The notes: generated by a model not told the origin, from the sequence alone. Shown: positions 3,183-49,638, counted from the stretch's first letter. The stretch is 53,788 nt of DNA from Candidatus Levybacteria bacterium RIFCSPHIGHO2_01_FULL_40_16 (GCA_001783805.1 MFNS01000002.1:1-53788); one strand, 5' to 3'. Translations and numbers: made by a program.

Positions 3183-5234
3183 TCAGGATGACAACGGAGA
3201 TTTGCCGACATCTTCTAATTTCCAAGCCGCAAATGTGCAGGCGGGGTAATTGGAACAGCCATAGAACTTGCGGCCTTTTTTGGTTTTTTTTATCACAATT
3301 TCCCCACCGTCTTTCGGACATTTCAAGCCTGTTTGCTCAACATAAGCTTTGGTAAATTTGCAATCGGGAAATCTAGAACAAGCAAAGAATTTGCCAAATT
3401 TTCCCGTTCTGATTATTAAATTTCCTTCACTACATTTAGGACATTTTTCGCCCGTTTCCTCAACTGCAATTTTTACTCTTTCCGCTCCTTCGACTTCGGT
3501 TAATTTTTTCTCAAACGGCGTGTAGAAATTACGCAAAACAAGTTCCCATTTTTTTTCTCCGATAGCAATATTATCAAGTTCATCTTCCATTGATGCGGTA
3601 AACGGAATATCGTCAATATATGAAAAATTTGTAACCAGGAAATCGCTGACGGCAATTCCGATTGCGGTCGGAGAAAATTTACCTTCTTGCCGTTCAATAT
3701 AGTTGCGGGCTTCAATGGTAGAGATAATCGTTGCGTAAGTTGAAGGCCTGCCAATTCCCTTTTCCTCTAATGTCTTGATAATCGATGCGTCATTGTATCT
3801 GGGCGGGGGCAAAGTTTCATGTTCTTTTTCCAAAACGTCGACAAGATCAAGCTTTTCACCGTTATTAAATTTGGGTAATTTATTATCAGACATTCCCAGC
3901 GGATTTACTTTCAAAAACCCGTCAAAAACAAGCACTGATCCGTTAGCTTTTAATTTATAAGAGCCTGCATCCACAAAAACCGTGGTTGACTCGACTACCG
4001 CGTCCGACATCTGCGATGCAACTGCCCGTCTCCAAATCAATTCGTATAATTTCCACCCCTGACTCCCAACTAAATTTGAAATTTGAAATTTGAAATTTGA
4101 AATTTCGCCGAAGGCAGTTGGTCTGATTGCTTCATGTGCTTCTTGGGCTAATTTTTGTTTGGCAGAATAAATTCTCGGTTGTAATGGCACATATTTGTCT
4201 CCATATTCTTTTTTAACGAAATTGATAATTGCAAACATCGCCGCCTGACCTATCGTTACGGAATCTGTTCTGTGATAAGTAATGTATCCTTCCTCATATA
4301 ATTTTTGCGCCAAACTCATGGTTCTTTTTCCATTGATATATAATTTATGCGCCGCATCCTGCTGAAGAGTTGAGGTTGTATATGGCGCTTGCGGGCTTCT
4401 GGTAGTGGCTTTCTGCAAAATATCTGCCACTGTAAATGTTTTCGTTTTTAAATCACCAACAATTCCTAAAGCTTTTTCTCCGGAGCCAATTGAAGTTTTA
4501 GTAACCTTATACTGCCCATCATACAGATCAAAAGTCTTCGCCACCTCAATCTTTTGGCCATCAATTTCTACCAGCTCGAATAATGTTTCCTCAGGTTTTG
4601 AGTTTTGAGTTTTGAGTTTTGAGTTCACCAGCGCCGCAGCGATGGTGTAGTATTTTTCTTTTCCAAACTTCTCAATTTCCCTTTCTCTTTCTACTATCAA
4701 ACGCAGGGCGACTGATTGAACGCGCCCCGCAGACAATCCCCTACGGACTTTTTTCCACAAAAGTGGAGAAAGTTTATAACCAACCAGCCTGTCTAAAACC
4801 CGGCGCGCGGTCTGCGCGTCAACCAAATTTTTATCTATGGTTCTGGGATTTTTTAGCGCCTCTTCAATTGCTTCTTTCGTTATTTCATGAAATACTATCC
4901 TATTGAATTTTTCATTTTTAACTTTTAATTTTTCATTTGAGCGGAGCATATCGGAGATATGCGAGGCGATCGCTTCTCCCTCCCTATCTGGGTCAGTAGC
5001 CAGAATAATTTGATCCGCTTTTTTTGCTTCAGTCTTAAGTTCGGCAATAATTTCCTCTTTATCCGCGACCATCTCGTATAAAGGCTTGAAGTTGTGCTCG
5101 AAATCTATGCCGATTTTGCTTTTAGGCAAATCCATAACGTGCCCCATTGAGGCTTTAATAACATAATCGCTGCCCAAAAACTTTCCAATTGTCCTAGCCT
5201 TTGTAGGACTTTCTACGATAACCAAACTTTTCAT
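3183..5234 (-). CDS. topA: DNA topoisomerase I (type IA) with C-terminal C4 zinc ribbons
   Basis: LVIVESPTKA, ATDPDREGEAI, SAGRVQS, GYITYHRTDS, AHEAIRPT and C-terminal CPKC/CSRFPDC repeats. Confidence 0.98.
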   Translation of the reverse strand: MKSLVIVESPTKARTIGKFLGSDYVIKASMGHVMDLPKSKIGIDFEHNFKPLYEMVADKEEIIAELKTEAKKADQIILATDPDREGEAIASHISDMLRSNEKLKVKNEKFNRIVFHEITKEAIEEALKNPRTIDKNLVDAQTARRVLDRLVGYKLSPLLWKKVRRGLSAGRVQSVALRLIVEREREIEKFGKEKYYTIAAALVNSKLKTQNSKPEETLFELVEIDGQKIEVAKTFDLYDGQYKVTKTSIGSGEKALGIVGDLKTKTFTVADILQKATTRSPQAPYTTSTLQQDAAHKLYINGKRTMSLAQKLYEEGYITYHRTDSVTIGQAAMFAIINFVKKEYGDKYVPLQPRIYSAKQKLAQEAHEAIRPTAFGEISNFKFQISNLVGSQGWKLYELIWRRAVASQMSDAVVESTTVFVDAGSYKLKANGSVLVFDGFLKVNPLGMSDNKLPKFNNGEKLDLVDVLEKEHETLPPPRYNDASIIKTLEEKGIGRPSTYATIISTIEARNYIERQEGKFSPTAIGIAVSDFLVTNFSYIDDIPFTASMEDELDNIAIGEKKWELVLRNFYTPFEKKLTEVEGAERVKIAVEETGEKCPKCSEGNLIIRTGKFGKFFACSRFPDCKFTKAYVEQTGLKCPKDGGEIVIKKTKKGRKFYGCSNYPACTFAAWKLEDVGKSPLSS

Positions 5235-8759: not shown

Positions 8760-8828
8760 AAATCTAGCTTATCACATTGATTAAGAGTTAATCTTGACTC
8801 ATAAAATCCATAATTATATAATTCCATA

Positions 8829-9035
8829 GTGTCTAGAGAAGCCGTCAGAAGAACAAAAGGATCAGATTTAAAAGTCAAAGAAAACGTTACCAAACCCAGA
8901 GCAAAAGTACAACTCATTGATAAATTATTAGGTGGCGCATTAGGTGGCGTAATATTTTTTTTGGAAACAAAACATAGGATAGATCAACGTTTACGGAAAA
9001 AATCAAAAAAACAGACCATAGATGAAAAAAAGTAA
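8829..9035 (+). CDS. Small hypothetical protein
   Basis: 68-aa ORF preceded by TTGACT-17 bp-TATAAT; contains a short hydrophobic GGALGGVIFF segment. Confidence 0.45.
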   Translation: MSREAVRRTKGSDLKVKENVTKPRAKVQLIDKLLGGALGGVIFFLETKHRIDQRLRKKSKKQTIDEKK

Positions 9036-9041
9036 CACAGC

Positions 9042-9059
9042 CTCGACCCCGGGGTCGAG
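9042..9059. repeat. Perfect 18-bp palindrome between convergent genes (REP-like or bidirectional terminator)
   Basis: CTCGACCCC-GGGGTCGAG. Confidence 0.7.
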
Positions 9060-9075
9060 CGTGCGAGGCATGACA

Positions 9076-10806
9076 TCAGCGGGAAAACCACTCTTCCAAG
9101 ATTTTTTTCGCGATGGGGGCGGCAACGTTGGAGCCCTCTCCTGAAGCCTCCGACAAAACTGTCACGATAATTTCCGGTTTTTCTGCCGGGGCAAAAAGCG
9201 TGATCCAAGCATGTGGTAAAGTTTCTTCCCCACCATGTTGTGCAGTTCCCGTCTTGCACGCAATTTTTATTTCTTCCTCATCTTTGAGATTTGATTTTTG
9301 ATTTTTGATTTTAAAATTAAACAGCGGCCAGGCAACTCCTCCCGCAGCACATGATTCAACCATCCCCTCCTTAATCAGGTCAGACGTCTCCCTGCTTAGA
9401 AATTTTTCATTTTTAACTTTTAATTTTTCATTTTTCAGAAGGTGGGGCTTATAAATAACCCCTTCATTGGCAATCGCTTGGGTCCAAACATTGATTTGCA
9501 AGGGAGTTGTCAGCAAAAAACCCTGCCCGATTCCATAATGATAGGTATCTCCCAAATACCAATTCTCCCCGATTGTGCTTTTCTTCCATTCTCTTGTCGG
9601 GACTAGACCCTCTTGCTCACCCAGAAGATCAATCCCTATTTTTTTTCCCAAACCGAACTTTTCTGCGAAGCCAGCAAGCTTGTCAACTCCGACTAATTCA
9701 GCCAATTTGTAGAAAAAAATGTCATTTGATCTTTGAATAGCTTTTACCACATTTACTTCTCCATCCGTCCTTCCGTATTGGGTAAAGTACCAGTTGGAAA
9801 AAGAAAAAGAACCAATTCTTAAAATTCCCGTATCTTCTATAGTAAAATTCCGATCGATAACTTTATTCTCCAATCCTGCCGCAGCGACAATCAGCTTGAA
9901 GGTTGATCCCGGAGGATATGTCCCTCCAATTGCGCGGTTCAAGAGGGGCTGACCTTCTGAATCCGATAAGATTTGTGACACGGATTTATAAGGCGTCGTC
10001 TCCCCCACGGAATATCCTTCACCCATAGTAAAAAGGTTGGGATCAAAAGGCGGACTGGACAGAAGGGCTAAAATTTCACCCTTGGGACTGGACACAATTA
10101 TGGCTCCTTTTTTGATATCTTTGGCCGCGTCAAACGCGGCTTTTTGCAGTACAATGTCCAAGGTAAGCGTAACATTCTGTCCGGGTACTGGATCTGTAAA
10201 GCCTAGTTTCCGGACAACTTTACCCAGACTATTTATTTCAACCAGTTCTCTTCCATTAATTCCGGCGAGTTTAGCTTCGTATTCTCTTTCAATTCCGATT
10301 TTCCCAATCAAATCTCCGCCCCCGTAGAGGGCAAAATCTTTATTTTTTAATTCTTCCGGAGAAATTTGTCCGATATAACCCAAAACATGGGAAAAAATGT
10401 CTTCATACGGATATTGCCTCAAGACGTCAATCTCCAAATTATTTTCTCCTTCGGATAAAAGTTTTAACGCTTCATTTTCATCTATAAGTTTTGTTTTACC
10501 GTTTAACGTCTGCCTAAATCCTGGAACATTAAAAACCAAGGGTACTCCTGTTCTATCAAAGATAATTCCGCGGGGAGCATGGATGGGAATAGTTCTTGTT
10601 CTATTGCTATCCGAAAGATTTCGAAAACTTTCTCCTTTAATAATTTGCAGAAAAAAAAGTCTTGCAACAATTAAGGTTACTGCTATTATCAAAATTACGG
10701 GCAAGATGTAGCTTCTCACGGAATAGTTTTTGTCAAAATTTCCGGGATGTTTTTGGCTTTTTTCAAGTCTTATATAGTCTCCGAATGCAGGCCCAATTTT
10801 AACCAT
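9076..10806 (-). CDS. mrdA: Penicillin-binding protein 2
   Basis: APRGIIFDR, PGSTFK (SxxK), SND (SxN) and KTGT; located in the mre cluster. Confidence 0.95.
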   Translation of the reverse strand: MVKIGPAFGDYIRLEKSQKHPGNFDKNYSVRSYILPVILIIAVTLIVARLFFLQIIKGESFRNLSDSNRTRTIPIHAPRGIIFDRTGVPLVFNVPGFRQTLNGKTKLIDENEALKLLSEGENNLEIDVLRQYPYEDIFSHVLGYIGQISPEELKNKDFALYGGGDLIGKIGIEREYEAKLAGINGRELVEINSLGKVVRKLGFTDPVPGQNVTLTLDIVLQKAAFDAAKDIKKGAIIVSSPKGEILALLSSPPFDPNLFTMGEGYSVGETTPYKSVSQILSDSEGQPLLNRAIGGTYPPGSTFKLIVAAAGLENKVIDRNFTIEDTGILRIGSFSFSNWYFTQYGRTDGEVNVVKAIQRSNDIFFYKLAELVGVDKLAGFAEKFGLGKKIGIDLLGEQEGLVPTREWKKSTIGENWYLGDTYHYGIGQGFLLTTPLQINVWTQAIANEGVIYKPHLLKNEKLKVKNEKFLSRETSDLIKEGMVESCAAGGVAWPLFNFKIKNQKSNLKDEEEIKIACKTGTAQHGGEETLPHAWITLFAPAEKPEIIVTVLSEASGEGSNVAAPIAKKILEEWFSR

Positions 10807-11180
10807 AATAACTTAAAAAATAAAACTCCGATAATCGCACTTATCAATGACTGAATTAGAACGTTATTGTACCCAAAAATCATAAGATAAATCAGACTTC
10901 CCAGGAAAGTTGAGATGAAGACAAAAGCTATGGTTTGAGTTTCGAATTTTCTTTCATAAAGCCGGATTAAAAACACGAAAATCGCCAATACTAAACTCGT
11001 ATATCCTAAAGGCCGAATCATGATTAAGTCCAGAAATAAACCTAATCCAAGGGCTAAAAAAAACACCCAAGATTTTTTAAATAAAACTGTCTGAATTGTC
11101 AATAATCCAATTACAAAAGGAATGGTGGTAATCCCGCTAATAATTAGCGTAATTAACGTTAATAATATAATAAAAATCAT
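10770..11180 (-). CDS. mreD: Rod-shape protein MreD-like membrane protein
   Basis: Highly hydrophobic, contains GLFLDL...PLG, and lies between mreC and mrdA. Confidence 0.75.
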   Translation of the reverse strand: MIFIILLTLITLIISGITTIPFVIGLLTIQTVLFKKSWVFFLALGLGLFLDLIMIRPLGYTSLVLAIFVFLIRLYERKFETQTIAFVFISTFLGSLIYLMIFGYNNVLIQSLISAIIGVLFFKLLWLKLGLHSETI

Positions 11181-11962
11181 TGTAGGTACACAAAAACCGC
11201 AGACAGATTCATAAAGTTAACAAAACTTTCGACTTTTGCTTTCTGAAAAAGATTACTTGGATTTTTTTCAACTGATGTAATTTTTCCGACTATTAAATCC
11301 GGCGGAATACCAACACCATTATTGTTAATGTCGCCCTTTGTTAAAACAAGTTCACCTATTTTTATGTTTTCCGAAAGAAGAATGTTGTTAATGGTCAAAG
11401 TATTTGCGCCCTTAACTATTCCTACGGCCCCATTCTCCGTCTTGGCTGTAAAAGAAGATGAAGGATTATTGATTAGGTTAATTTGAGCTAAATTTTCGGA
11501 AATTTGCGATATTACACCTACGAAATTTTCTTTGATTACTACTGCCATCCCCATTTTTAGATTATTCTTGAGACCTTTATTTATAATAAAACTGTTGGGA
11601 ACCGATATCCCGGGAATAAAAGATTGAGCACCGATTATATCTGCTTTCAAAAGCTGTGTGCTTCGGGGATAAACCGTTTGGAATTGATCGGATAATGCTG
11701 CATTTTCTTGCTTGAGTTTTTCAAAGTCCGCAACCCGGGACAAAAGTTTCAAATTTTCGTCTTCCAATCTTTTAATTCTTGCGCTTTCCGATACAAAAGG
11801 CAATTTTTGAAACAAGTTATAAGATAAACCTTGTATAGCAACTGTGGGTTTTTCCAAAAATGAAAGAAATTTAAGTTTACCCGAAAGGGAAAGAACTAAA
11901 ATTATAATGCTTAAAAACGCGACAGCAAAAAAAGCAGACAAAAAACCCTCTCTCCTTTTCAT
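11177..11962 (-). CDS. mreC: Rod-shape protein MreC
   Basis: TM helix, coiled coil (LEDENLKL...LKQENAAL), IINKG, GELVLTKG and GIPPDLIVGKI. Confidence 0.93.
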   Translation of the reverse strand: MKRREGFLSAFFAVAFLSIIILVLSLSGKLKFLSFLEKPTVAIQGLSYNLFQKLPFVSESARIKRLEDENLKLLSRVADFEKLKQENAALSDQFQTVYPRSTQLLKADIIGAQSFIPGISVPNSFIINKGLKNNLKMGMAVVIKENFVGVISQISENLAQINLINNPSSSFTAKTENGAVGIVKGANTLTINNILLSENIKIGELVLTKGDINNNGVGIPPDLIVGKITSVEKNPSNLFQKAKVESFVNFMNLSAVFVYLQ

Positions 11963-12003
11963 AAACCCATTCTAGTAGGTTTACCCTATCGTTACAAGAG
12001 GAA

Positions 12004-12025
12004 ATTATTTCAATCCCCCCACGAC
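12004..12025. repeat. Direct repeat copy 1 (displaced duplicate of the mreB 3' end)
   Basis: ATTATTTCAATCCCCCCACGAC, 21/22 identical to 13022-13043. Confidence 0.9.
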
Positions 12026-12048
12026 AGCACTGAATTGTATTTAGCCCT

Positions 12049-12999
12049 ATGGGACGATATAATAGCCAAATGATAGAGAGACAACTAACAGGCAAACAGA
12101 TATCAAGAAGGGAATTCTTAACATTCATGGGAAAAGCTCTTATGGTGTGGGTAGGAGGAGGCGTAGTTGGGTCAATTTCGGGCAAAATTTTTATTGAGCA
12201 GACAAACATTATGCTCCCCGACAGTCCTTCCGCAAGCAATCAATTAAAAGCAACAGCGCTGAATACGGAGCTCGAAGGCGAGCAAGCCTATTTCGTACCG
12301 GAGGGAAAATTTACAAAAGAATTATTCGATAAAGTCAGAAACAGTACTTATGCTATCGATACGCTAACCGATAGAGGCATCGGTTCGGGAACGGGCTGGT
12401 GCGCTCACAAAGAAGGAAACAATGTCTACATCGTAACGAATAAGCATGTCACTACCTTAGTCGATCAACCAGATGCAAAAATAATAGGTTTGAATATCTG
12501 GAGACCGAACATAGATCGGAAAAAAATTGCTCCTTTAAATGTTACAGTGGTCACGGCGGGGACAGATGATATTGCAATATTAAAATGCGAGCTAAGTCCG
12601 GAACAGGCGCAAGCAATAACTCCATTGGCTTTTCAAGACAATGCCGAAATTAAGAGCAACGAGAAAATTTTGATTGTAGGTTTTCCTGCCGAATTTAGAG
12701 ATATAACAACAGATGGCATAAATTTTCTGACCTTAGGAAATGTGGCAACGGTAGAATGGAATGCAGATAAACAAACTAGAATCTGGTACGCCCGCGGACT
12801 GTCAAATGACGGAAGTAGCGGATCGCCTGCGGTTATTCCCGACGAACAAGGCAATCCAAAGGTTGTGGGAATTCTTTTCGGCGGAGCAGACGTAATTGTC
12901 CGGGAAAATTGGAGAGAGAAAAGGAAACAGCCAATCATCGGAAGCATTACCTTGAGTATTAATCCTCTAATCGAATACGCAAGAAAAATACAGTTTTAA
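12049..12999 (+). CDS. Trypsin-like serine protease with an N-terminal RR motif/membrane anchor
   Basis: GSGTG, VTNKHV (His), DDIAIL (Asp) and GSSGSP (Ser); N-terminal SRREFL followed by a hydrophobic stretch. Confidence 0.88.
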   Translation: MGRYNSQMIERQLTGKQISRREFLTFMGKALMVWVGGGVVGSISGKIFIEQTNIMLPDSPSASNQLKATALNTELEGEQAYFVPEGKFTKELFDKVRNSTYAIDTLTDRGIGSGTGWCAHKEGNNVYIVTNKHVTTLVDQPDAKIIGLNIWRPNIDRKKIAPLNVTVVTAGTDDIAILKCELSPEQAQAITPLAFQDNAEIKSNEKILIVGFPAEFRDITTDGINFLTLGNVATVEWNADKQTRIWYARGLSNDGSSGSPAVIPDEQGNPKVVGILFGGADVIVRENWREKRKQPIIGSITLSINPLIEYARKIQF

Positions 13000-13021
13000 A
13001 TATTTTTTAAGCATATTCCCC

Positions 13022-13043
13022 ATTATTTCAATCCCCCAACGAC
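13022..13043. repeat. Direct repeat copy 2 (actual mreB 3' end, VVGGLK-stop)
   Basis: ATTATTTCAATCCCCCAACGAC. Confidence 0.9.
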
Positions 13044-14123
13044 TTTTACCCTTTGCAGGAGTGAATCGTTTTCCAGGACGCGCCCGGTTCCCCTGACAAC
13101 CGAGGTAAGGGGATCTTCGGAAAGAACAACCGGAATTTTAGTTCTCTCAACTATCAATTGATCAATCCCCGAAAGCATAGATCCTCCGCCGGTTAATAAA
13201 ATTCCATGGCTTAGAATATCATTGGTTAACTCGGGCGGAGCCTCCTGCAAAATATCCGAAATTCCCTCCATAATTTCAGCTAAAACCGGAGCCAAAGCTT
13301 CCCTGATCTCCACTTCTGTCAGGCGCAAGCTTTTCGGAAGTCCTGTTTCGATATCTCGTCCCCTGACGACTGCCATTTTCTCCTTTATTCCCTCATTTGA
13401 CTTTTCTCCTGAGCCTTCTGAACGGGCAACTTTTAACCTTGGTTGGAACGCGCTTCCTATTTTTATTTTTACATCTTCCGCAGTCTTCTCTCCCATTATC
13501 AAGCCGTGTCTCAGTCTGACATAATGAATAATCGCATTATCCATCTCCTGTCCAGCAACTTTTAAAGATTTACTTACCACAATGCCGCCCAAAGATATAA
13601 TTGCAATCTCCGTGGTTCCTCCGCCAATATCTACAACCATCATTCCGGTTGGAGCAAAAACCGAAACCTTTTCTCCGATTGCCGCGGCCATTGGTTCTTC
13701 GATCAAAAATGCTTCCCTGGCTCCCGCCGAAAGAGCTGCTTCCCAAACAGCACGGCGCTCAACTTCGGTAACAGAAGACGGAATACCGATGACAACTCTG
13801 GGGCGGGACCAGGCAACGGGAAGAACATTGCCAACTTCATGGACTACTTGAATATAGTAAGAGATCATTGCCAGGGTCGCATCAAAATCCGCAATCACCC
13901 CGCCCTTCAAAGGTGATACCGTGATAATTGACGGAGGAGTTTTTCCAACCATTCTTTTGGCCTCGGTCCCGATCGCAATGATTTTCTTGGTTTTTTTGTG
14001 CATTGCCACTACCGAAGGCTCTCTTATAACAATTCCCTTATCTTTTACCCAAATTAAAGTATTTGCAGTTCCGAGATCTATACCAATATCATGGGAAAAA
14101 TAAGAAAAAAATTTGCCAAACAT
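13023..14123 (-). CDS. mreB: Rod-shape determining actin homologue MreB
   Basis: DIGIDLGTANT, IEEPMAAAIG, VVDIGGGTTE and LLTGGGS. Confidence 0.98.
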   Translation of the reverse strand: MFGKFFSYFSHDIGIDLGTANTLIWVKDKGIVIREPSVVAMHKKTKKIIAIGTEAKRMVGKTPPSIITVSPLKGGVIADFDATLAMISYYIQVVHEVGNVLPVAWSRPRVVIGIPSSVTEVERRAVWEAALSAGAREAFLIEEPMAAAIGEKVSVFAPTGMMVVDIGGGTTEIAIISLGGIVVSKSLKVAGQEMDNAIIHYVRLRHGLIMGEKTAEDVKIKIGSAFQPRLKVARSEGSGEKSNEGIKEKMAVVRGRDIETGLPKSLRLTEVEIREALAPVLAEIMEGISDILQEAPPELTNDILSHGILLTGGGSMLSGIDQLIVERTKIPVVLSEDPLTSVVRGTGRVLENDSLLQRVKVVGGLK

Positions 14124-14131
14124 ATAGAGAA

Positions 14132-14240
14132 AATTTTCAATTTACAGTTTACAATTTTCAATAAATGATCCAATTATCAATGCTTGAAACATTGCGTGAT
14201 TGAAAATTTAATGAAAATTGCAAATTGGTAATTGCAAATT
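14132..14240. repeat. Intergenic palindromic element built from inverted heptamer arrays
   Basis: Left arm AATTTTC-AATTTAC-AGTTTAC-AATTTTC; right arm ...GAAAATTG-CAAATTG-GTAATTG-CAAATT. Related to 20042-20149. Confidence 0.75.
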
Positions 14241-14295
14241 GTTTTTATCATAGCATACTCTTGACAAGAAAATAAAATTATGTCACTCTAGATAC

Positions 14296-14790
14296 ATGAA
14301 TTTACCCGGAGAAGGAACAGCGGACAATGCCGATCTCACTCGTTCGGCTACAGGAATTTCGACACATGAACCAAGCACTGTAATTCCGGCTTCAGATAAA
14401 CAAAGGAAGGAATTTTTGTCGGGAGCAAACATTGGCTCAAAATCAATTAGCGAAATTTCCGCTAACCCCGCCCCCACAACTGAAGCTACAGGAATTGCAA
14501 GAGATATAACCGCAGAAACAGCAATAAAAGCTAATGCCGCCGCCAAAGCAGTGAAGCCGGTAGCAGAAACAGTGGTTCCAGCAATACAAACTGCAGACCC
14601 AGCAGCACCGGAAGCTGCTCAGGAACCAAAAACCAACGAACAACAGCTAGAGGAATTAAGACAAAAAATGAAACAGGCTGAAGAAGCAAGGGCTGCACAA
14701 AAACCACCGGTCATAACTCCGGACGAAGCTGTGGCCGGAATAAATCCCGATAGGTTAAAACTTGTTCAAGATCTCAAGAAATCTCAATAA
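14296..14790 (+). CDS. Hypothetical low-complexity Ala/Pro/Thr/Glu protein
   Basis: 164-aa ORF; TTGACA lies upstream near 14260. Confidence 0.55.
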   Translation: MNLPGEGTADNADLTRSATGISTHEPSTVIPASDKQRKEFLSGANIGSKSISEISANPAPTTEATGIARDITAETAIKANAAAKAVKPVAETVVPAIQTADPAAPEAAQEPKTNEQQLEELRQKMKQAEEARAAQKPPVITPDEAVAGINPDRLKLVQDLKKSQ

Positions 14791-14850
14791 GTCTCTTCTC
14801 GCAATTGCTTGTTCCAACCTAAATAATGTGTTAAGATTGGAAAATCTAGG

Positions 14851-17202
14851 ATGAAATTCCTCAATCTTTGCAACCGGATTATCGAATATTCTTTCTATAC
14901 CCTTTTTCTTCTGGTTCCGCTTGCTTTTACGAGTGCTACTTCCGAGCTTTTTGAGTTGAATAAAATGTGGCTTGTCTGGGGACTAACTATTATTATTGGC
15001 GCGTCTTGGTTTATAAAAATGATTCTTCAAAAACGAATTCTGCTTTGCAGAACACCCCTGGATATTCCAATCGGTCTCTTTCTCCTTTCTCAAATCATCT
15101 CCACTATTTTCTCTCTGGATCCGCATGTTTCTTTGTGGGGTTATTATTCCCGCTTTAACGGCGGATTACTGTCCATAATTTCCTACATTTTGCTGTACTA
15201 TGCATTTTTAAGTAATTTCGATTCTCAAAAATTATCCGCTGTAGTCCGTAGACTATTGACCATAAGCTTAATATCCGGCCTGATTGTGGCGTTGTGGGGA
15301 CTTCCCTCTCATTTCGGCTACGACCCGACTTGCTTACTTTTTCGGGGCCAATTTAATGTTGCTTGCTGGACAGATGCTTTTCAGCCAAAAATCAGAATTT
15401 TCTCAACACTGGGACAGCCTGATTGGCTCGCCGCCTACCTGGCCATTCTAATACCAATTTCTATAGCAATGGCATTAAATAATTTACGAGCTCAAAATAA
15501 TCCTGATAATAAGTATCATGTATCAGGTGTCATGTATTATGTATCTAATAAAAAAATACTACATACTACCTACTACATACTACTTACTGCATTATTCTAC
15601 GTTGATCTCCTTTTCACTCGTGCGCGCTCCGGATTTTTGGGAATTTGGCTTTCTCTTATTTTTTTCGCCGCTTTATATTATCGGATCAGCGGCAAACCAA
15701 AATTATCCATATCAGCCGAAAATCTAAAATCTCCTATTGCCATTTTGATTTTTGGACTATTAATTATTACCTTCATCATCGGCACGCCGATTAACCAATT
15801 GAATAAGTTCACGCTTGCAGGAATCGGGAGCATTTTTCAGAAACCCGTAACTACTGAAACACAGGAAGATAAAGCACCCATTCAACCATCTGATTCCGGA
15901 GGGACAGAATCGGGAGACATAAGACTTTTAGTTTGGGAAGGCGCGTTAAGCACTTGGAGAGCAAATTTCCTCTTTGGCACAGGAGTGGAAACGTTTGCTT
16001 TTGCTTATTACAGGTACAAGCCCGTTGGCCAAAACCTAACCTCCGAATGGAACTTCCTATACAACAAAGCCCACAATGAGTTCCTTAACTATCTTGCGAC
16101 CACCGGCATTTTTGGATTAGGAACTTACCTACTCATGATCAGCTCTTTTTTCTTTGTAGGCTTTAAGAAGCTCAAAGCGCAAATGTCAAAACTCAAAGAT
16201 GAAACTCAAAACGAAAAGCTTTCAGCTTTAAGCTGTAATTTTGAGCTTTGCATTTTGAGCTTTGCACTACTGGCAAGCTACGTCTCCATCTTGATTACCA
16301 ATTTCTTTGGATTTTCCGTTGTCATGACAAATGTATATTTATTTATGCTTCCCGCTTTTGTCTTTGTTTTAAGCAATACGATTAAGACAGAAAGATCCGC
16401 GCAATCCGCCAACTCATCCGCGAAAATCTACAATAACGAATCTAACAATATGTATCAATGGACCGGTATTTTCTTTATAATTCTTGCTTCATTATTCATG
16501 ATTCTAAACTTAGTCCGTTTCTGGCAGGCAGATATTGCCTATGCTTTGGGCTATAATCTAGACCAGGCCAAAGAATATCAACAAGCCTATCCAAATTTAC
16601 ACAAAGCAGTAGAACTTCGGGGAAATGAGCCTGTTTTTAAAGACGAGCTTGCCATAAATGATGCAATTATTGCCGCAGGATTGGTCTCTCAAAAGCCTAT
16701 TGATTCAACTACAAAAGAACAAGCGGTCAGCGTTGCTTCTTCTTTGGCTCAAGAAGCAATTAACACTAGCAATGAAGTCGTTTCTCAACACCCAAACAAT
16801 GTAGTCTTTTGGAAGACCAGGGTCAGGCTTTTTCTTACTCTTGCTCAAGTTGATTCCCGATATTTGCCGCGTACTCTGGATGCGGTTGAAAAAGCTTCTC
16901 TTCTTGCTCCTAACGATGCAATTATTTGGTATAATCTCGGTGTTTTATACGGACAGAATAATAATCTTGAGAAGGGAATTTCGGCTCTGGAAAAAACAAT
17001 TAAGCTCAAGCCCGATTACAGGGATGCGCGTTTTGGATTAGGCATTTTTTATCATACTGCTTCCCTGGATAAAGACAGAAAGGTAGTTGTGGATCAGACT
17101 CTAAATCAAAAAGCAATCGCCCAAATGCAATATATTTTGGATAATCTATCTCCGAAGGATGCAGATGCCCTAAAATCCATTGAGGATTGGGCCAAACTCT
17201 AA
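14851..17202 (+). CDS. O-antigen-ligase/O-oligosaccharyltransferase-like membrane protein with C-terminal TPR
   Basis: Multiple TM helices, STLGQPDWLA, FTRARSG, GTGVETF, KAHNEFLNYLATTGIFG and TPR-like WYNLGVLY...ARFGLG. Confidence 0.85.
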   Translation: MKFLNLCNRIIEYSFYTLFLLVPLAFTSATSELFELNKMWLVWGLTIIIGASWFIKMILQKRILLCRTPLDIPIGLFLLSQIISTIFSLDPHVSLWGYYSRFNGGLLSIISYILLYYAFLSNFDSQKLSAVVRRLLTISLISGLIVALWGLPSHFGYDPTCLLFRGQFNVACWTDAFQPKIRIFSTLGQPDWLAAYLAILIPISIAMALNNLRAQNNPDNKYHVSGVMYYVSNKKILHTTYYILLTALFYVDLLFTRARSGFLGIWLSLIFFAALYYRISGKPKLSISAENLKSPIAILIFGLLIITFIIGTPINQLNKFTLAGIGSIFQKPVTTETQEDKAPIQPSDSGGTESGDIRLLVWEGALSTWRANFLFGTGVETFAFAYYRYKPVGQNLTSEWNFLYNKAHNEFLNYLATTGIFGLGTYLLMISSFFFVGFKKLKAQMSKLKDETQNEKLSALSCNFELCILSFALLASYVSILITNFFGFSVVMTNVYLFMLPAFVFVLSNTIKTERSAQSANSSAKIYNNESNNMYQWTGIFFIILASLFMILNLVRFWQADIAYALGYNLDQAKEYQQAYPNLHKAVELRGNEPVFKDELAINDAIIAAGLVSQKPIDSTTKEQAVSVASSLAQEAINTSNEVVSQHPNNVVFWKTRVRLFLTLAQVDSRYLPRTLDAVEKASLLAPNDAIIWYNLGVLYGQNNNLEKGISALEKTIKLKPDYRDARFGLGIFYHTASLDKDRKVVVDQTLNQKAIAQMQYILDNLSPKDADALKSIEDWAKL

Positions 17203-24347: not shown

Positions 24348-25681
24348 TTTGTTCCTTTTGCGTAAAACCAGGTGGGGCCGGCATCTTTATTAAAGATAAA
24401 CAAAGGCCGGATTTTTTTCTTCTTCACCCATTCGCTAACCGCCTTTTTAACTCCGTTGGGCTGCCCGGACAATTCGTTATTATAATTATAGCCCGCTATA
24501 ATCCCGCCTTTGCGCACTTTTTTTGACCACTCCTTAATATTATCTCCTGTACTTTTATAGTCAGCCCCTGCGTCAATAAAAACAAAATCCAGTGAATTAT
24601 CGGCAAACTTTTTAGCTGCATTTGCCGATGTATCCCTGATAATTTTACAATTAAATGACTCAAGTCTCGCTTTGGCTCTATTATACAGGTCGTCGTTAGA
24701 TTCCCATGCATCAATTGCAAATAATTTTAGATTGGGATTCATAGCGCAGAGGAATTTAGCATACTTGCCTGCTCCAACCCCTATTTCAGCACCCAGATTA
24801 AACCCCAATTCCCTGAATAATACCGACAAGCTGCCCTCTCTGCTGCGATACAGCTTATGCCGCGACTGATTTTTCTTTAATTGATATTTATTTAAGATAT
24901 ACTTTGACGTCGTCATATTATCCACTACATTATATGCTTCCGACTTATGTTTTTCAAACCATTCATATCGGTTGCCCCTTGTTTTGTCGGGAAGCTGATG
25001 CTTCTTATTCTTCCACCGCATTATAGCAAAGGTAGTGGGGAGAGGAACGCCAATGAAATAACGTGAGAAATTTTTTGTATCTCTGTCTTCAAGATATTTT
25101 CTTCCGAAATAGCGATAATGCAACATTTTTACCCCTATCTCTTCTCCTTTTTTGAATGAAGTATTTCCTTGCAGTTCTGCAATACTATGGCAGCCATTTC
25201 TAAAACGTATATAAATTGCAGGATCAAATAAAACACACTGGGTTGCCCAATAATCAGGGAGTCCATTTTTTACTTCATCATAAATCTGCCCGGTGGTGGT
25301 TGGTAATGTTTCAGAAAACATTGTGAATCCCTGAGGTTGTATCAGCTGTGTCCCAAGTTTTTTCTCGCGTTTTAATACTTCCATTAAATTAGGGTGATAA
25401 AGAAACTCATCCGCGTCAACCAATACCACCCAATCAGCTTTACCGCGGCTAAGTTCCTCATACTTCGTCCACAATTTACTAATCCAATATCCCTCATTTA
25501 ATCCATGTTCTTTTAAATCAAAGATTGTAACTTTTGGATGCTGACTTAATATCTTTCTGCTATTATCCGGACTTTCATCGTAAAAAGCATATATGTTTTG
25601 GGCAAAACTTCCATAATGCTTCAGGAAATAAGGCAAAAGAAATTCCTCATTGTAAACCATGACATAAACATCAATTTTCAT
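24344..25681 (-). CDS. GT2-like glycosyltransferase fused to a class I methyltransferase domain
   Basis: N-terminal VMVYNEEFLL...VDADEFL; C-terminal AEIGVGAG...LDFVFID...KVRKGG. Confidence 0.82.
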   Translation of the reverse strand: MKIDVYVMVYNEEFLLPYFLKHYGSFAQNIYAFYDESPDNSRKILSQHPKVTIFDLKEHGLNEGYWISKLWTKYEELSRGKADWVVLVDADEFLYHPNLMEVLKREKKLGTQLIQPQGFTMFSETLPTTTGQIYDEVKNGLPDYWATQCVLFDPAIYIRFRNGCHSIAELQGNTSFKKGEEIGVKMLHYRYFGRKYLEDRDTKNFSRYFIGVPLPTTFAIMRWKNKKHQLPDKTRGNRYEWFEKHKSEAYNVVDNMTTSKYILNKYQLKKNQSRHKLYRSREGSLSVLFRELGFNLGAEIGVGAGKYAKFLCAMNPNLKLFAIDAWESNDDLYNRAKARLESFNCKIIRDTSANAAKKFADNSLDFVFIDAGADYKSTGDNIKEWSKKVRKGGIIAGYNYNNELSGQPNGVKKAVSEWVKKKKIRPLFIFNKDAGPTWFYAKGTK

Positions 25682-26340: not shown

Positions 26341-27489
26341 TCATTTTACATACATCCAGGTTGGACGAGAATCTTTATTAAGGATAAGCAAAGGCCGGAT
26401 TTTTTTCTTTTTTACCCATCCGTCAACCGCTCTTTTGACTTCATTGGGTTTTCCGGACAATTCGCTAGTATAATTATATCCGGCTACAATTCCGCCTTTG
26501 CGCACTTTTTTTGACCATTCCCAGATATTGTTTTTTATACTCTTATAGTCATTAATTTCATCCAGAAAAACAAAATCCAGTGAATTATCGGCAAACTTTT
26601 TAACCGTATTCATTGACGTATCTCTAATAATTTGACAGGTAAACGGCTCAAGCCTTATTTTGGCCTTGTTATATAGTCCATCGTTAGATTCCCATGTGTC
26701 AATGGCAAATAATTTAAGCTTGATACTAATAGAACAAAGGGTTTTAGAAAATCTGCCTGTTCCGACCCCAACTTGAGCACCCTGATTAAATTCCAATTCC
26801 TTAAACACCTTTAACAAACTGACCTCCCTACTGCGACATAGCTCATACCGAGATTTGCCTCTCTTTAATTTGAATCTGTTTTCAATATGCCTTAGAGTAT
26901 TCATCCTCACAGCCCTCTCTTCAATTCCGGCCTTTCTATTTTCATATCTTCTAATTGCATCCTCCACTGAAGAAGCTTGAATGACTTTTGGATTTTTATT
27001 CCAATGCCAGTTCAATTTTCTTTCTCTCCAATTGTCTCTATAGATATTTTTTAGATATTCTTCGTATTTATGAGGAACAGGAACTTTACGACCCTCAAAT
27101 TCAATATAGCTGTAGGGAAATATGATATCCTTATCAAGCACATAATAGCAGTCTCGCCAAATATTTAATACTACATATTTACCTCTCGTAATAATAAATA
27201 CAATATCCGTTCTATATGCGTCTCCATCCCTATAAAAACCTATGCTGCCAAATCCTGAAGCGGCCCGTTTATCAAAAAAATAGTATTTTAAAGGATTTTT
27301 TAAAATTTTTTCTCTATATTCAGCCTGGACAAACATATCTATCTCCGAATCATCATCAAAAGGTTTTCTCTGAAGAAGAAATGCCATCAGGGTACTTCCT
27401 CCCAAAAAATACGGAATTTTTAATTTATCCAATTGGTCCATTGACCCGAATATAAAGTTTTCCATTAAAGTTGCTTTTGCAGATGTCAT
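26341..27489 (-). CDS. LicD-like nucleotidyltransferase fused to a methyltransferase-like domain
   Basis: YFLGGSTL...DDDSEID, FEGRKVPVP...YL..IY; C-terminal GAQVGVGTG...LDFVFLD. Confidence 0.78.
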   Translation of the reverse strand: MTSAKATLMENFIFGSMDQLDKLKIPYFLGGSTLMAFLLQRKPFDDDSEIDMFVQAEYREKILKNPLKYYFFDKRAASGFGSIGFYRDGDAYRTDIVFIITRGKYVVLNIWRDCYYVLDKDIIFPYSYIEFEGRKVPVPHKYEEYLKNIYRDNWRERKLNWHWNKNPKVIQASSVEDAIRRYENRKAGIEERAVRMNTLRHIENRFKLKRGKSRYELCRSREVSLLKVFKELEFNQGAQVGVGTGRFSKTLCSISIKLKLFAIDTWESNDGLYNKAKIRLEPFTCQIIRDTSMNTVKKFADNSLDFVFLDEINDYKSIKNNIWEWSKKVRKGGIVAGYNYTSELSGKPNEVKRAVDGWVKKKKIRPLLILNKDSRPTWMYVK

Positions 27490-41157: not shown

Positions 41158-41796
41158 CTAAAAGACATTGTTATAGTAGTCATATTTGAGATTTGTCCGG
41201 TTCATCCAGTTGCCGGGAAAGTTGATCTGCCCTTTTGTGTAACGGAAAGAACCCTTATTCGCGTCTTCTCTCATGATAAACCAGGCGCCTTGGTGATTGG
41301 TAAATCCATAAAAAGCGATGATGCTGTCGTCAATCTCGGTAATATTGTATCCGACCAATGGCTGATCTTGTTCAAGATTGCTACTATCGGTTGCGGCAGT
41401 TTCCATATTTCTTTCCGATGGTGCCGGAGAACTTTTGGGAAATAGGTTTTCGAATTTTTTATTAAAAATTGAGAAGAGGAAAACGGCAAGTCCTGCACCG
41501 CCAATCAGTTTAAGAAATGCCCGCCTGTCAATATCGGCAATGCCTAGATTTTCTCCTATTGCCGCCCCGATTCCTGCCACCGACTTCATCGAAGGATGGC
41601 TCGTGGCCACCGATTCCCTAGAATATGCCGCCCGAGTCCGGCGCGGAAAGACTTTAAAGAAGAAAAGAATAAGCAATGGATAAAGAAGAATTGCGACGGC
41701 CAGCTGGAGATAGGTTTTGGCAGTCACAAACGTTGCTCCCACCACCAGGCCGGCGACTATAAAGATAAAACCGGTTAGAACCTTGCCTTTATTCAT
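41158..41796 (-). CDS. Hypothetical membrane protein with an internal RR motif
   Basis: Two N-terminal TM helices, DRRAFLKLIGG plus a TM helix, and an aromatic-rich C-terminal domain. Confidence 0.7.
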   Translation of the reverse strand: MNKGKVLTGFIFIVAGLVVGATFVTAKTYLQLAVAILLYPLLILFFFKVFPRRTRAAYSRESVATSHPSMKSVAGIGAAIGENLGIADIDRRAFLKLIGGAGLAVFLFSIFNKKFENLFPKSSPAPSERNMETAATDSSNLEQDQPLVGYNITEIDDSIIAFYGFTNHQGAWFIMREDANKGSFRYTKGQINFPGNWMNRTNLKYDYYNNVF

Positions 41797-42880
41797 TTAT
41801 CTCCTCCCTAACCTCTACATATGTTGCCGATATAAAGCCTGACTCGGTAGCTAATTTGACCTCATACCACTTTGAATCAGCAGAAACAAATTCGAAAATG
41901 TCGCCATCTTTAGCCTGTCCGATTATTTCCGAATTGGTGGTCGATTTTTGGCGGATGTTCACACTTTCCGCCCCATCACTAACTTTAACCGTTACGATCA
42001 TTTTGGGTTTTACCTCTTCTGTTGTTGAAAGAACTGCGGGAGCAATAGAAGGATTGAAATCATTGGCTGTGGAAACCATAACGTTTCTTATTCCGAAGGT
42101 AAACAGCAACAAAAATACTACAATTGTCGCCAGAAGTTCAGGCATTCTTTGCAGGGGCTTCAGAGAGGATTGTGCAGCTGTTTCCGGAAGATGATTTTCA
42201 ACATTTCTTGCAGGATCTCTCCTTTCAAGATGCTCAATTTCACTCTCAAAAGTGATATCCTTAAGAAGTTCCTTTACCTTTTGGTCGGGTTCGTATTTTT
42301 CCACAAAATCTTTGTATCCGGCCGTCCCCTTGCCAAAAAAAGACAGAACAATTTTCGGCTTAACCCAGGAAGTTTCTCTTGCACCCAAATATTCGCTATA
42401 GGATGAATGGCCGCCGGCATAATGGAAAAAACGAGTCAGGTGCGGCAGACGGGGTCCGCTCTTGATCTGAACTGACTTATATGGGCCTTCGAATAGAGCT
42501 CCTGTGCGCTGGTATTTCTTATTAAAATACATTGAATATCTGGTACACAAAGATCTGATAAAGCTCTCCAACGAGCCTTTGGCCACCTGATGCAAGAGTA
42601 AATGGAAGTGGCCCGGCATTAACATGTACGCGATGAGCTCAACTTTGTTGAAATAATTCTTAGGCTGGTGAGGAGTGCCTCGGAAAACGCGACCATTCAC
42701 CGTAAAAGACTTTTTGATGCTTTCGGGATCCTGGGGAGGAGTCAAATAACCCTCTAGGAAGTCAAGGAAGACCGTGTAATCCGCTTCGTCGTTGAAAATG
42801 ACCCTGTTCTCTACCCCTTTGTTGTAAATGTGGGAATAAATTCCTTCTTTCCGTTCCCTAAAGAGATTTTTGGCAGGCAT
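41789..42880 (-). CDS. RAYT/IS200-like HUH transposase domain fused to a TM helix and an SH3-type domain; probably catalytically dead
   Basis: HIYNKG, AYMLMPGHFHLL, YFNKKYQRTGALF and SSY..Y; TM LLATIVVFLLLFTFGI; VNIRQKSTTNSEIIG...WYEV...GFIS. Confidence 0.8.
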   Translation of the reverse strand: MPAKNLFRERKEGIYSHIYNKGVENRVIFNDEADYTVFLDFLEGYLTPPQDPESIKKSFTVNGRVFRGTPHQPKNYFNKVELIAYMLMPGHFHLLLHQVAKGSLESFIRSLCTRYSMYFNKKYQRTGALFEGPYKSVQIKSGPRLPHLTRFFHYAGGHSSYSEYLGARETSWVKPKIVLSFFGKGTAGYKDFVEKYEPDQKVKELLKDITFESEIEHLERRDPARNVENHLPETAAQSSLKPLQRMPELLATIVVFLLLFTFGIRNVMVSTANDFNPSIAPAVLSTTEEVKPKMIVTVKVSDGAESVNIRQKSTTNSEIIGQAKDGDIFEFVSADSKWYEVKLATESGFISATYVEVREEINE

Positions 42881-43047
42881 AATATTACAATACCTTGTAA
42901 GAAGATACTTTGCAAGTACCAATTTGAAGCTAAATCTTCCCGAAGATTAAGAAGAAGATGAATCCTTATAAGTATTTTTTGATATCAACCGCCCCAATAG
43001 ACTGCTAAACGGAGCTGAAGAAAAAGAATGTGCTATAATGAGCCGGA

Positions 43048-45836: not shown

Positions 45837-46538
45837 ATGATCACTGTACATACGGTAGCTTATAATGAAAGCTTACTTATCCAGTTCATGATCGATCATT
45901 ACCGTAAGAGATTTCCGGGCTGTCGGATTATCGTGTACGATAATATGAGCACTGATAATACCGTTAAAATCGCTCTGGCCAATAATTGCGACGTTATCCC
46001 CTTTGATACGAACAATGAATTTCAAGACCGCCGGCATATGGAAATCAAAAATAATTGCTGGAAAGATGCAAAAACCGATTGGGTTTTAATGTGCGATCTG
46101 GATGAGTTGCTGGATATAAATGAAGTTGAGTTAAAAACGGAAGAAGGTTTCGGAACGTCAATGATCAGATGCGAGTTTTACGACATGATTAATATGGAAG
46201 ATAATTTGGATATTGCCGGCATGAAGTATGGGGAAAAAAGCCCACTACCTGGTAAGTTTTTGCTTTTTAACAAAAAGTTAATCAACGAAATAAATTACAC
46301 GCCAGGCGCTCACGGATGTAATCCAATGGGCACTGTTATATACAGCAACAAAGTATACAAGGCATATCATTACAATGCCATAAATGAGAATGTAACAATT
46401 GAGAAATTTAAGGACTACAGTGCGAGATTAAGTCCGGACAATATCAAGCATGGTTGGAGCCTTTTTGTTTTGTCTACGCCCGAACAAATCCGTGAGGAAT
46501 ATGTTGCCGGACGAAGCAAAGCAATAAAAGTACGCTGA
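45837..46538 (+). CDS. GT2-like glycosyltransferase
   Basis: VAYNE, YDNMSTD and MCDLDE; related to the N-terminal domain of 24344-25681. Confidence 0.8.
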   Translation: MITVHTVAYNESLLIQFMIDHYRKRFPGCRIIVYDNMSTDNTVKIALANNCDVIPFDTNNEFQDRRHMEIKNNCWKDAKTDWVLMCDLDELLDINEVELKTEEGFGTSMIRCEFYDMINMEDNLDIAGMKYGEKSPLPGKFLLFNKKLINEINYTPGAHGCNPMGTVIYSNKVYKAYHYNAINENVTIEKFKDYSARLSPDNIKHGWSLFVLSTPEQIREEYVAGRSKAIKVR

Positions 46539-47122
46539 TGAAAATTTTAATCGGAACACCAATTCACCAAGTTAAGGATTATTCCATGGAAAGGTGGCTT
46601 AAAAATGTCGCCAGACTCCAGAAGAAAACTCCGGCTGATTTATTTTTAATTGATAACTCCTCCGGACTTGACTATGTAGAAACAGTTAAGGGTTATTGCC
46701 AGAAATACGGCGTCAAAAATTACAAAATAAAACATTTGAATCTCGATCAAAAATTAAGCTCCGGCAGACGGATAAATATAGCGCAGGAAGCATTAAGACG
46801 AATAGCTATCGGCAAAGATTATGACGCTTGGTTTTCTTGGGAATGCGATCAAATCATACCAACCAATGCCCTGGATAAACTTATCAAGATAATGAAGTTA
46901 GGAAATTTCATGATGGTTGTACATAATTCTTGGGACAGGAAAATTCCCGCTGTCTTTAATTTCGATATGGGCTGCACCTTAATCACAAAAAAGTGCTTAA
47001 AATTAAAAAGAATTACCGACCTCTGGACAGAGGACTGGTTGGAGACACAAACTTTACAAAATGGAGGCAGTTTTGCCAATGTTCATGGAGCAATATGTCC
47101 GATTTATCATTTAAGAAAATAG
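46538..47122 (+). CDS. GT-A-like glycosyltransferase, KILIGTP family, copy 1
   Basis: MKILIGTPIH..KDY, DNS, SWECD and PIYHL. Confidence 0.7.
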   Translation: MKILIGTPIHQVKDYSMERWLKNVARLQKKTPADLFLIDNSSGLDYVETVKGYCQKYGVKNYKIKHLNLDQKLSSGRRINIAQEALRRIAIGKDYDAWFSWECDQIIPTNALDKLIKIMKLGNFMMVVHNSWDRKIPAVFNFDMGCTLITKKCLKLKRITDLWTEDWLETQTLQNGGSFANVHGAICPIYHLRK

Positions 47123-48751: not shown

Positions 48752-48821
48752 ATCCCTTTAGAAATAAAAAATCAGAGATTTTTGCCGACACGCCAAAGGC
48801 GAGTCGGATTTCTAACGGGAT
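48752..48821. mobile_element. MITE-like element, CCCGTTAGA/TCTAACGGG family
   Basis: ATCCCTTTAGAAAT...ATTTCTAACGGGAT (13/14), ATGA at both ends, internal hairpins. Confidence 0.7.
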
Positions 48822-49434: not shown

Positions 49435-49638
49435 CCATAAAAATTAACATAATTCATGCGGGTGAATTTTGATTATGGTATAGTTTTATCTAACAGGATG
49501 TTTGGAGAAATACATCCGGCTGCCCCAATGTTGTTTTTAAGACAAACCGATATTAATAAAGTATTATTAGTTTAGACAATTAAAAGTAAAGGAGAAAATT
49601 AAAGGTCTTTGGATTGTGGCCTTTTTTGACGTGATAAA

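Follow-up and report, generated by a model that had tools for sequence, protein, structure and literature searches.

In a 53,788-nt stretch of DNA from Candidatus Levybacteria bacterium RIFCSPHIGHO2_01_FULL_40_16 (hereafter the window), a gene for a predicted serine protease stands between mreB and mreC, and the sequence that ends mreB is found on both sides of it. The host is a tiny-genome groundwater member of the CPR/Patescibacteria, and the names under which close MreC homologues are deposited place it in Candidatus Levybacteria. To our knowledge, how this group acquires accessory genes is poorly understood. How did a gene come to lie directly behind mreB, and how did mreB retain a complete 3′ end? 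The original prediction, made from the window alone, was that a protease cassette had integrated site-specifically into the end of mreB.

The mreB 3′ end is present twice

The mreB gene of the window (13023-14123, minus strand; Pfam MreB_Mbl, 407 bits) is intact. Its last six codons (VVGGLK), the stop codon and one more base form a 22-nt segment at 13022-13043 (ATTATTTCAATCCCCCAACGAC; the functional copy), which recurs at 12004-12025 (ATTATTTCAATCCCCCCACGAC) with 21/22 identity. Read from the minus strand, each copy is GTC GTx GGG GGA TTG AAA TAA T, encoding V-V-G-G-L-K-stop plus one base. The lone mismatch is a synonymous difference, GTT versus GTG. When up to three mismatches (<=3) were allowed, the two copies were the sole matches in the whole 53.8-kb window, compared to 0 expected from 100 shuffles. 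Pairs of 22-mers at >=21/22 identity are rare in the window when paralogous and internally repetitive genes are excluded. The mismatch search and the shuffles therefore bear out the predicted 22-bp duplication of the last six mreB codons and stop. The coordinates likewise agree with the predicted 41 bp between the upstream copy and mreC: the copy ends 41 nt from the mreC ATG, and the end of its stop codon lies 42 nt from it.

The copies enclose a 996-bp cassette (12026-13021, plus strand), in which 9 nt precede a promoter-like site and 22 nt follow the protease ORF. The ORF map and Pfam searches place the protease, in opposite orientation to mreB, as the only gene between them, as had been predicted. 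The promoter-like site (12035-12063, plus strand) comprises TTGTAT, a 17-nt spacer and TATAAT, and ends 6 nt before ATG 12070. It was read by eye and does not appear in a consensus scan (first hexamer 3/6); its geometry suggests that it could act as a promoter and give a leaderless transcript. The protease ORF spans 12070-12999 (plus strand, 309 aa; Pfam Trypsin_2). ATG 12070 is the likely start, rather than 12049, as it is used in several public gene calls and the TATAAT ends 6 nt upstream of it. The composition of the cassette shows no anomaly (GC 0.42, versus 0.40 in the flanking mre genes), and its DNA had no match in a phage collection. No terminal inverted repeat or core-type symmetry was found at the cassette ends, and no imperfect palindrome at the boundary.

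The cargo is a predicted S1 serine peptidase

By its Pfam matches (Trypsin_2, 45.8 bits against a cutoff of 27.6; Trypsin, 31.1 bits against a cutoff of 20.6) and its predicted His-Asp-Ser triad, the cargo protein is classified as an S1 (chymotrypsin-fold) serine peptidase. The catalytic residues H126, D167 and S250 are invariant in a family alignment of 20 members. At the N-terminus, a hydrophobic stretch comes after a twin-arginine-type signal (SRREFL). The twin-arginine-type N-terminus is conserved across the family and suggests an endopeptidase that is secreted or anchored in the membrane. Among solved structures, those of the staphylococcal Spl and V8 proteases and of HtrA are the nearest (profile E = 1.7e-8 to 1e-6). 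The cargo protein has the chymotrypsin fold and H-D-S triad in common with Spl/V8 (S1B) and with the HtrA protease domain, but it belongs to a divergent CPR family with a twin-arginine-type signal and without a PDZ domain.

The family is small, with 61 cluster representatives at E < 1e-10 in an exhaustive search. As the best of these is only 39% identical, no donor can be named for the protease. A k-mer protein search with the protease found only itself. The best homologue, P0122, has an unrelated neighbourhood in another CPR genome, and P0125 lies on a 1.8-kb contig; neither context links the family to mreB. A 133-aa protein that shares the C-terminus of the protease (P0155, locus L056) was rejected as a likely assembly chimera, its 715-nt contig starting with 264 nt of GC-rich unrelated sequence.

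Related species carry empty sites

We gathered loci, denoted by L numbers, from ~59 Levybacteria species by MreC, by MreB and by the DNA pattern of the mreB end. The mreB-mreC spacer measures 1-124 nt in ~33 of the ~59 species and 203 nt in one, while in ~25 species mreB is followed by at least 450 nt or by visibly different genes. In L017 and L018, whose MreC is 62-65% identical to that of the window, 44 nt (TTCTYGTTCTTGAAGAAGCCCC..AAACCTACTAGAATAAGTTT) separate an intact mreB stop from the mreC ATG. In L053 and L054 (MreC 71-74% identical), mreB and mreC are 4 nt apart. The direct adjacency of mreB and mreC that the original prediction had expected of relatives is thus present in ~33 species (L017, L018, L053, L054 and ~29 others), each of them having the repeat only once. 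The protease is absent from the site in the closest relatives, and no cargo-free relative with both repeat copies was observed.

The 12004-12025 copy and its 42-nt spacer align with the L017/L018 junction, base for base around the promoter-like site of mreC, and also with a partial mreB end in L052 described below. Because its 42-nt spacing to mreC matches the 44 nt at empty sites, the mreC-side copy is, on this comparison, the displaced original end of mreB, which we refer to as the scar. An insertion into the mreB 3′ end that regenerated the gene is well supported by these alignments.

The site is a recurrent slot with unrelated cargo

The cargo at the mreB-mreC junction is unrelated between lineages across the ~25 species with an occupied site. 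This agrees with the expectation that other species would hold different cargo at the same place. Pairwise blastp among 13 cargo proteins found no mutual similarity. L001 encodes a 712-aa protein, L005 a 208-aa protein, L020 a Zn-dependent phospholipase-C-like protein and L022 a YafQ-type toxin-antitoxin pair together with a 225-aa protein. From a reading of sequences and motifs, L061 would carry an AbrB/PIN-like pair and L081 an MsrB-like protein. The cargo proteins of L023, L063, L066, L077, L083 and L084 are encoded on the opposite strand, and the cargo of later loci differs in length and sequence. Cassettes in the slot are 0.6-1 kb long and form single transcription units, and in many cargo genes a strong promoter-like site starts 1-14 nt from the mreB stop. 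A motif, TCCTATAGTT(T)GAC, lies directly 3′ of the mreB stop in L001, L005 and L076, which carry different cargos. We found no identical cassette in two unrelated genomes. The gene content of the compared loci provides good support for the mreB-mreC junction as a recurrent accessory-gene slot across Levybacteria.

Partial mreB ends mark insertions in other lineages

Scars were also found outside the window. In L022, AAAGTCGTCGGAGGACTGAAATAGGTCTTGA ends mreB and a second copy, AAAGTCGTCGGGGGACTAAGATAGGT-TTGA (31 nt), lies 647 nt further downstream, with a repeat alignment score of 19.5 compared to a null maximum of 11.5. The repeats flank the toxin-antitoxin cassette, and the scar is followed by older cargo and then mreC. 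L109, from another assembly, has the mreB end, the L022 cassette (89% of nucleotides identical) and a scar of 27 nt; the DNA directly past the scar differs between the two. The L063 mreB end, AAAGTCATCGGCGGATTAAAATAA, has its second copy, AAAGTCATCGGTGGCCTCAAGTAA, ~705 nt further downstream; this scar measures at least 24 nt. An opposite-strand 232-aa gene lies between the copies, with more cargo beyond. L022, L109 and L063 therefore share one order, with the new cassette at mreB, then the scar, and older cargo distal to it. In L052 (MreC 75% identical), GTCGGGGGATTGAAATAA and a 44-nt spacer precede mreC, with non-mreB sequence upstream; this scar is at least 18 nt long.

With the window included, there are four independent scars, none longer than 31 nt. 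Counted from where the stop codon ends, their left boundaries are at -18, -21, -26 and -27 nt. Lineages differ in repeat length (18-31 nt) and in where the right boundary falls (+1 to +9). About 20 of the ~25 occupied sites have no detectable scar: none scored above shuffle controls in L001, L005, L020, L023, L024, L027, L031, L057, L061, L075, L077, L081, L083, L084 or L085. A duplicated mreC start in L058 adjoins a run of N and was discarded as a scaffolding artefact.

L024 has the mreC promoter twice, and the second copy is similar to that of L022 (29/32). L108 carries the L022/L109 toxin-antitoxin unit in a non-mreB context; the homologous stretch begins precisely at the -35 box and finishes with the stop codon. 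No duplication flanks the window's other small species-specific insertions, which lie in the PBP2-dprA spacer and upstream of mreB.

We then considered how the functional and displaced copies differ. Seven of the eight differing codons are synonymous. In L063, 5 of 24 nt differ and the peptide KVIGGLK* is unchanged (P = 3e-4 under random neutral decay, or ~1% if half of the changes fell in the constrained copy). The functional copies of L022 and L109 share CTGAAATAG, and their scars share YTAAGATAG. These patterns indicate that, at least in L063 and L022/L109, each copy had its own past as a working mreB end, which argues against a target duplication from a staggered cut. They further indicate that, in L063 at least, the incoming DNA would have brought its own mreB end. 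Comparison with the nearest relatives to determine which copy is native gave a mixed result: the L022 scar looks native, and the functional end of L063 matches its nearest relative. The window pair, with its one synonymous difference, is compatible with an imported mreB end and is uninformative alone.

Transcription of the neighbouring mre genes

On the minus strand, the gene order is mreB, the insert, mreC (11177-11962; Pfam match), mreD (10770-11180; without a clear Pfam match) and mrdA, the PBP2 gene (9076-10806; Pfam match), with successive genes from mreC to mrdA overlapping. The consensus scan listed a promoter-like site for mreC at 11969-11997 (minus strand; TTGTAA, 17 nt, TAGAAT), with 6 nt between it and the mreC ATG. 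This site is kept in L001, L004, L005, L017, L018, L051 and L052. At the empty sites of L017 and L018 the spacer is much like that of the window and keeps an identical -10 box and geometry, and for this reason mreC was probably already transcribed independently in the lineage before the insertion. With a promoter of its own for mreC, the insertion need not have altered the coupling of mreB and mreC, and the suggestion in the original prediction that the insert uncouples these genes is doubtful.

The protease and mreB genes are convergent, with stop codons 23 nt apart, and no terminator was predicted between them. Antisense transcription, or convergent read-through into mreB, is possible with this arrangement.

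Searches for a recombinase and for current mobility

No integrase or resolvase was found in the cassette, in the scanned ORFs of the 53.8-kb window (>=96 aa) or in the scanned cargo proteins of relatives. The only transposase-like match in the window is a weak Y1_Tnp domain at 41789-42922, 29 kb away. The cargo examined contained no relaxase, coupling-protein or integrase remnants, and an attP-like pattern, GTNGTNGGGGGATTGAAATAA, had no match among viral contigs. The predicted cargo of about 1 kb without an integrase is therefore what the locus holds: 996 bp, one ORF and no recombinase in the cassette.

For a look at the population, we read 24 contigs for identical MreB and 24 for identical MreC, from many samples. 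All site-spanning contigs of the same species carry the cassette at 100% identity. Fourteen contigs aligned to window positions 11000-14300 at 100% identity, two of them with one SNP, inside mreB. Window bases 9001-15000 match contig MFOW01000005.1 of GCA_001782525.1 at 100%, and the longest contig bearing the protease is 776 kb, Levybacteria genomes being roughly 0.8 Mb. An empty or excised variant was not present among the site-spanning contigs of the 24 read per look-up. In this sample, the cassette is now fixed and gives no sign of current mobility. We note one 1037-nt contig (L015) that begins right at the scar and departs from the window sequence 10 nt past the protease stop, where it has 30 nt of other sequence; it may represent a variant with another gene beside the protease.

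Taken together, the prediction of site-specific integration stands in part. The geometry of the repeats, the regenerated mreB and the occurrence of empty and occupied relatives agree with it, but there is no integrase or resolvase, no excised form was seen among the contigs, and most occupied sites are scar-free.

How the cassette may have arrived

From the comparisons above, the ancestral locus had mreB, a ~42-nt spacer containing the mreC promoter, and mreC. A 996-bp unit of a promoter and one gene entered 21 nt before the end of mreB, so that mreB now ends in six substitute codons and its original end was pushed to the far side, as a 22-nt scar before the mreC promoter. In the reading that we tentatively favor, the cassette would have arrived as circular DNA bearing a short (~20-30 nt) mimic of the mreB end and undergone a single Campbell-type crossover with the resident end. 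The crossover would have been catalyzed in trans by a recombinase encoded elsewhere, or would have occurred by short-homology recombination. The product would be attL/attR-like direct repeats around a recombinase-less mini-cassette resembling a CIME. We regard this reading as quite possible, if short of probable. It is favored because independent lineages would then be expected to have short repeats of about equal length in one position, mreB would be regenerated, the copies would differ only synonymously, and accretion would follow the order known from CIMEs and tycheposon islands. Weighing against it are the lack of an integrase in the searches above, the lack of symmetry at the ends, the variable repeats, the ~20 of ~25 occupied sites without a scar, the missing attP match and the absence of excision among the contigs. 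A bolder version, in which Levybacteria and possibly other CPR would have a dedicated cassette-capture system acting on the last 20-30 nt of mreB with its recombinase encoded elsewhere, strikes us as unlikely. Such a system would add cassettes of one or two genes with their promoter and restore the essential gene in the process. If it exists, it would be an integron- or tycheposon-like slot of an undescribed kind, whose cassettes lack a recombination gene and any recognizable attC or attP structure.

A route that needs no recombinase, which we consider possible but on the unlikely side, is homology-facilitated illegitimate recombination after DNA uptake. The 3′ part of mreB from a donor Levybacterium, with its downstream cargo, would replace resident sequence through one crossover in mreB, and the other end would be joined just upstream of the resident mreB end, leaving the scar. 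Selection on the zone upstream of the mreC promoter, together with deletion bias, would keep scars short; the scar lies at -43 to about -65 of the mreC promoter, by our own reading a UP-element-like zone, so that its persistence and its length could both be due to selection. A competence gene, dprA, lies 2.3 kb away, and same-species contigs contain 150-220-nt patches of ~25% divergence in mreB and mrdA that resemble recombination tracts. The duplicated mreC promoter on the right flank of L024 is unexpected from a recombinase that targets the mreB end, and the TCCTATAGTT(T)GAC motif common to L001, L005 and L076 fits swapping of cargo through conserved flanks. Cargo free of mobility genes also suits this route, and synonymous differences between the copies would be expected here too. 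However, all four independent scars are 18-31 nt long, where random joints should give a long tail, and mreB diverges by 12-25% in nucleotide sequence between species, making it a poor substrate for RecA.

Duplication in place appears improbable to us. Here, both copies would derive from the resident gene, either by fill-in of a staggered break of ~22 nt, as by a transposase- or casposase-like enzyme, or by a templated switch-back. The single difference in 22 nt between the window copies would suit this origin, as would an insert that is almost exactly one promoter-plus-ORF unit and the toxin-antitoxin unit that L108 shows moving between loci. The all-synonymous differences at 5 of 24 positions in L063 speak against it at the probabilities given above. 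Target duplications of the transposon families known to us are 2-15 bp, a range that the 18-31 nt seen here exceeds; moreover, the cassette has neither terminal inverted repeats nor a transposase, and the other small insertions in the window lack flanking duplications. Finally, the protease could be ancestral at this position, with the repeat a product of chance or a functional sequence kept twice, and a regulatory value is conceivable for a scar that adjoins a promoter. This reading is effectively refuted: no chance match is expected, the scar is in frame as an MreB C-terminus with its stop, its spacing to mreC matches that of empty-site junctions, the protease is at most 39% identical to any relative and has its best homologue in an unrelated context, and the closest relatives are without it.

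Comparison with known systems

The locus offers an alignable case in which the end of an essential gene has repeatedly been given unrelated, self-promoted cassettes (protease, toxin-antitoxin, MsrB, phospholipase-like). Its scars record the order of events and hold evidence for an imported replacement gene end. By splitting mreB from mreCD-mrdA with the mreC promoter kept, the insert also provides a natural test of whether these genes need to be co-transcribed. If a recombinase acts in trans, the 22-31-nt mreB end would be a defined attB and perhaps a landing pad in CPR organisms, for which, as far as we know, genetic tools are lacking. If none is involved, the locus would document transformation-driven gene gain in CPR.

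Of the features of att-flanked elements, the locus has a regenerating pair of repeats, empty sites with a single copy, and re-use with tandem accretion (L022, L109 and L063); absent are a recombinase, in the cassette, the scanned cargo and the scanned window ORFs, and excision among the contigs. Features that would point to other classes of element are missing. There is no transposase, no terminal inverted repeat and no short identical target duplication such as a transposon or IS would have, and the cassettes are self-promoted, with no attC-like palindrome and no integrase in the window, unlike integron cassettes.

Homology-facilitated illegitimate recombination likewise brings in foreign DNA without element enzymes from one homologous anchor, and the host of the window has dprA. 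The outcome usually described is replacement or deletion at random microhomologies, whereas in the mreB slot one gene end is duplicated again and again over 18-31 nt. The slot resembles phage morons and additive flexible genomic islands in holding lineage-specific, self-contained units of promoter and gene between genes that are adjacent in relatives. The mreB slot differs from morons in lying on a cellular chromosome and in having no predicted terminator, and we know of no moron described with a regenerating duplication of the end of its neighbor gene.

In streptococci, CIMEs and att-flanked islands sit in the 3′ ends of fda, rpsI, rpmG and rplL; they accrete in tandem, the element that lies farthest from the target gene being the most decayed, and classical CIMEs span 1.2-13 kb (PMC7563491). 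Like CIMEs, the mreB slot shows accretion, has cargo without recombination or transfer genes, and is marked by direct repeats, one copy of which overlaps and restores the 3′ end of a conserved gene. The slot differs in that it shows no sign of ICE/IME descent, has no nearby integrase, holds cassettes of 0.6-1 kb, lies in a CPR host and targets mreB. Tycheposons of Prochlorococcus, 10-20 kb long, encode a tyrosine or serine integrase of their own and have tRNA genes as targets (10.1101/2020.12.28.424599). In the islands of that organism, partial tRNAs mark successive integrations, older cargo is pushed outward and most of the material has no mobility genes (10.1101/2020.12.28.424599). A streamlined genome, a fixed hotspot at a conserved gene and partial copies of the target are common to these islands and the mreB slot, but none of the ~25 occupied loci has an integrase-bearing element at the mreB site. 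What is new here, with no associated integrase in ~25 occupied loci, is the combination of a CPR host, mreB as the target and very small, self-promoted cassettes.

A short sequence shared by three essential genes

A 33-nt sequence, AAATGAAAAATTAAAAGTTAAAAATGAAAAATT, occurs in exact copies within topA (window 4906-4938) and mrdA, which encodes PBP2 (window 9401-9433), and again within mreB of another Levybacteria species (contig L018, 1885-1917). These host genes are unrelated and essential. All three carry the sequence in frame, where it encodes the peptide NEKLKVKNEK; the surrounding sequence is unrelated among the copies, and the chance expectation is 0 matches. The element looks like either a tiny in-frame mobile insertion or the product of short-patch templated copying.

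Variation around the mre genes

The spacer between mrdA and dprA (window 8760-9075) is 316 nt long and contains a 68-aa ORF (8829-9035, + strand), whereas the same spacer measures 19 nt in the relative L054. We looked for a flanking duplication at 8760-9075 and found none. This spacer is a further small lineage-specific insertion. On the other side of mreB, between it and the Wzy_C/TPR gene, lies a 164-aa ORF (14296-14790, + strand) with no Pfam match. The genes that relatives carry at this position vary, with one of 120 aa in L005 and others in L053 and L054; the second flank of mreB is therefore variable too.

L008 and L011, two contigs of the same species from other samples, are identical to the window except for one patch each of 150-220 nt with approximately 25% divergence, located inside mreB in L008 (window 13578-13722) and inside mrdA in L011 (window 9364-9582). 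Either recombination introduced these patches as short tracts from related species, or they are chimeras of co-assembly. A third contig, L015, comprises window 12003-13009 plus 30 nt, and its first base falls exactly at the scar, the displaced former 3′ end of mreB upstream of mreC. At 10 nt past the protease stop, L015 has GTATGATATAATATTATCATGAGTGAAAAT in place of the mreB end, a sequence that looks like a promoter and gene start. L015 may represent a strain with an extra cassette.

Recurring sequences at the mreB site and elsewhere

In three species whose cargo genes all differ (L001, at 1777; L005, at 4284; and L076, 3 nt past the mreB stop), the mreB stop is followed by the motif TCCTATAGTT(T)GAC, which contains a -35-like TTGACA. 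The mreC promoter is present twice in the relative L024 (4864-4895 and 4965-4996). The extra copy precedes the functional promoter by approximately 105 nt and matches the promoter of the relative L022 at 29/32 positions, compared to 23/32 for L024's own. Outside the mreB site, a YafQ-type toxin-antitoxin unit (L108, 693-1267) sits behind an unrelated 209-aa gene and shares 77% nucleotide identity with the mreB-site unit of L022 and L109, the homology extending exactly from the -35 box to the toxin stop.

Repeats and a transposase-like gene in the window

Much of the window (23.5-51 kb) is a large sugar-modification and glycosyltransferase cluster. Paralogous Methyltransf_24 genes contain a 222-nt repeat (24395-24616 and 26383-26604), and further repeats occur among tandem paralogs of the glycosyltransferase region (46536-46707 and about 48800-51300). 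A gene with 24/48-nt internal periodicity (52433-53700) lies at the window's end. The sole transposase-like match within the window is a 377-aa protein (41789-42922, - strand) with a weak IS200-like Y1_Tnp domain (26.9 bits) and an SH3_3 domain.

Gene starts

Across genes of the window (for example 11969-11962, 12058-12072, and 14133-14121) and of relatives, a -10-like hexamer repeatedly ends 6-9 nt before the ATG, and a Shine-Dalgarno-like sequence is absent at these genes. Together, these features suggest that leaderless transcripts are common in this lineage.
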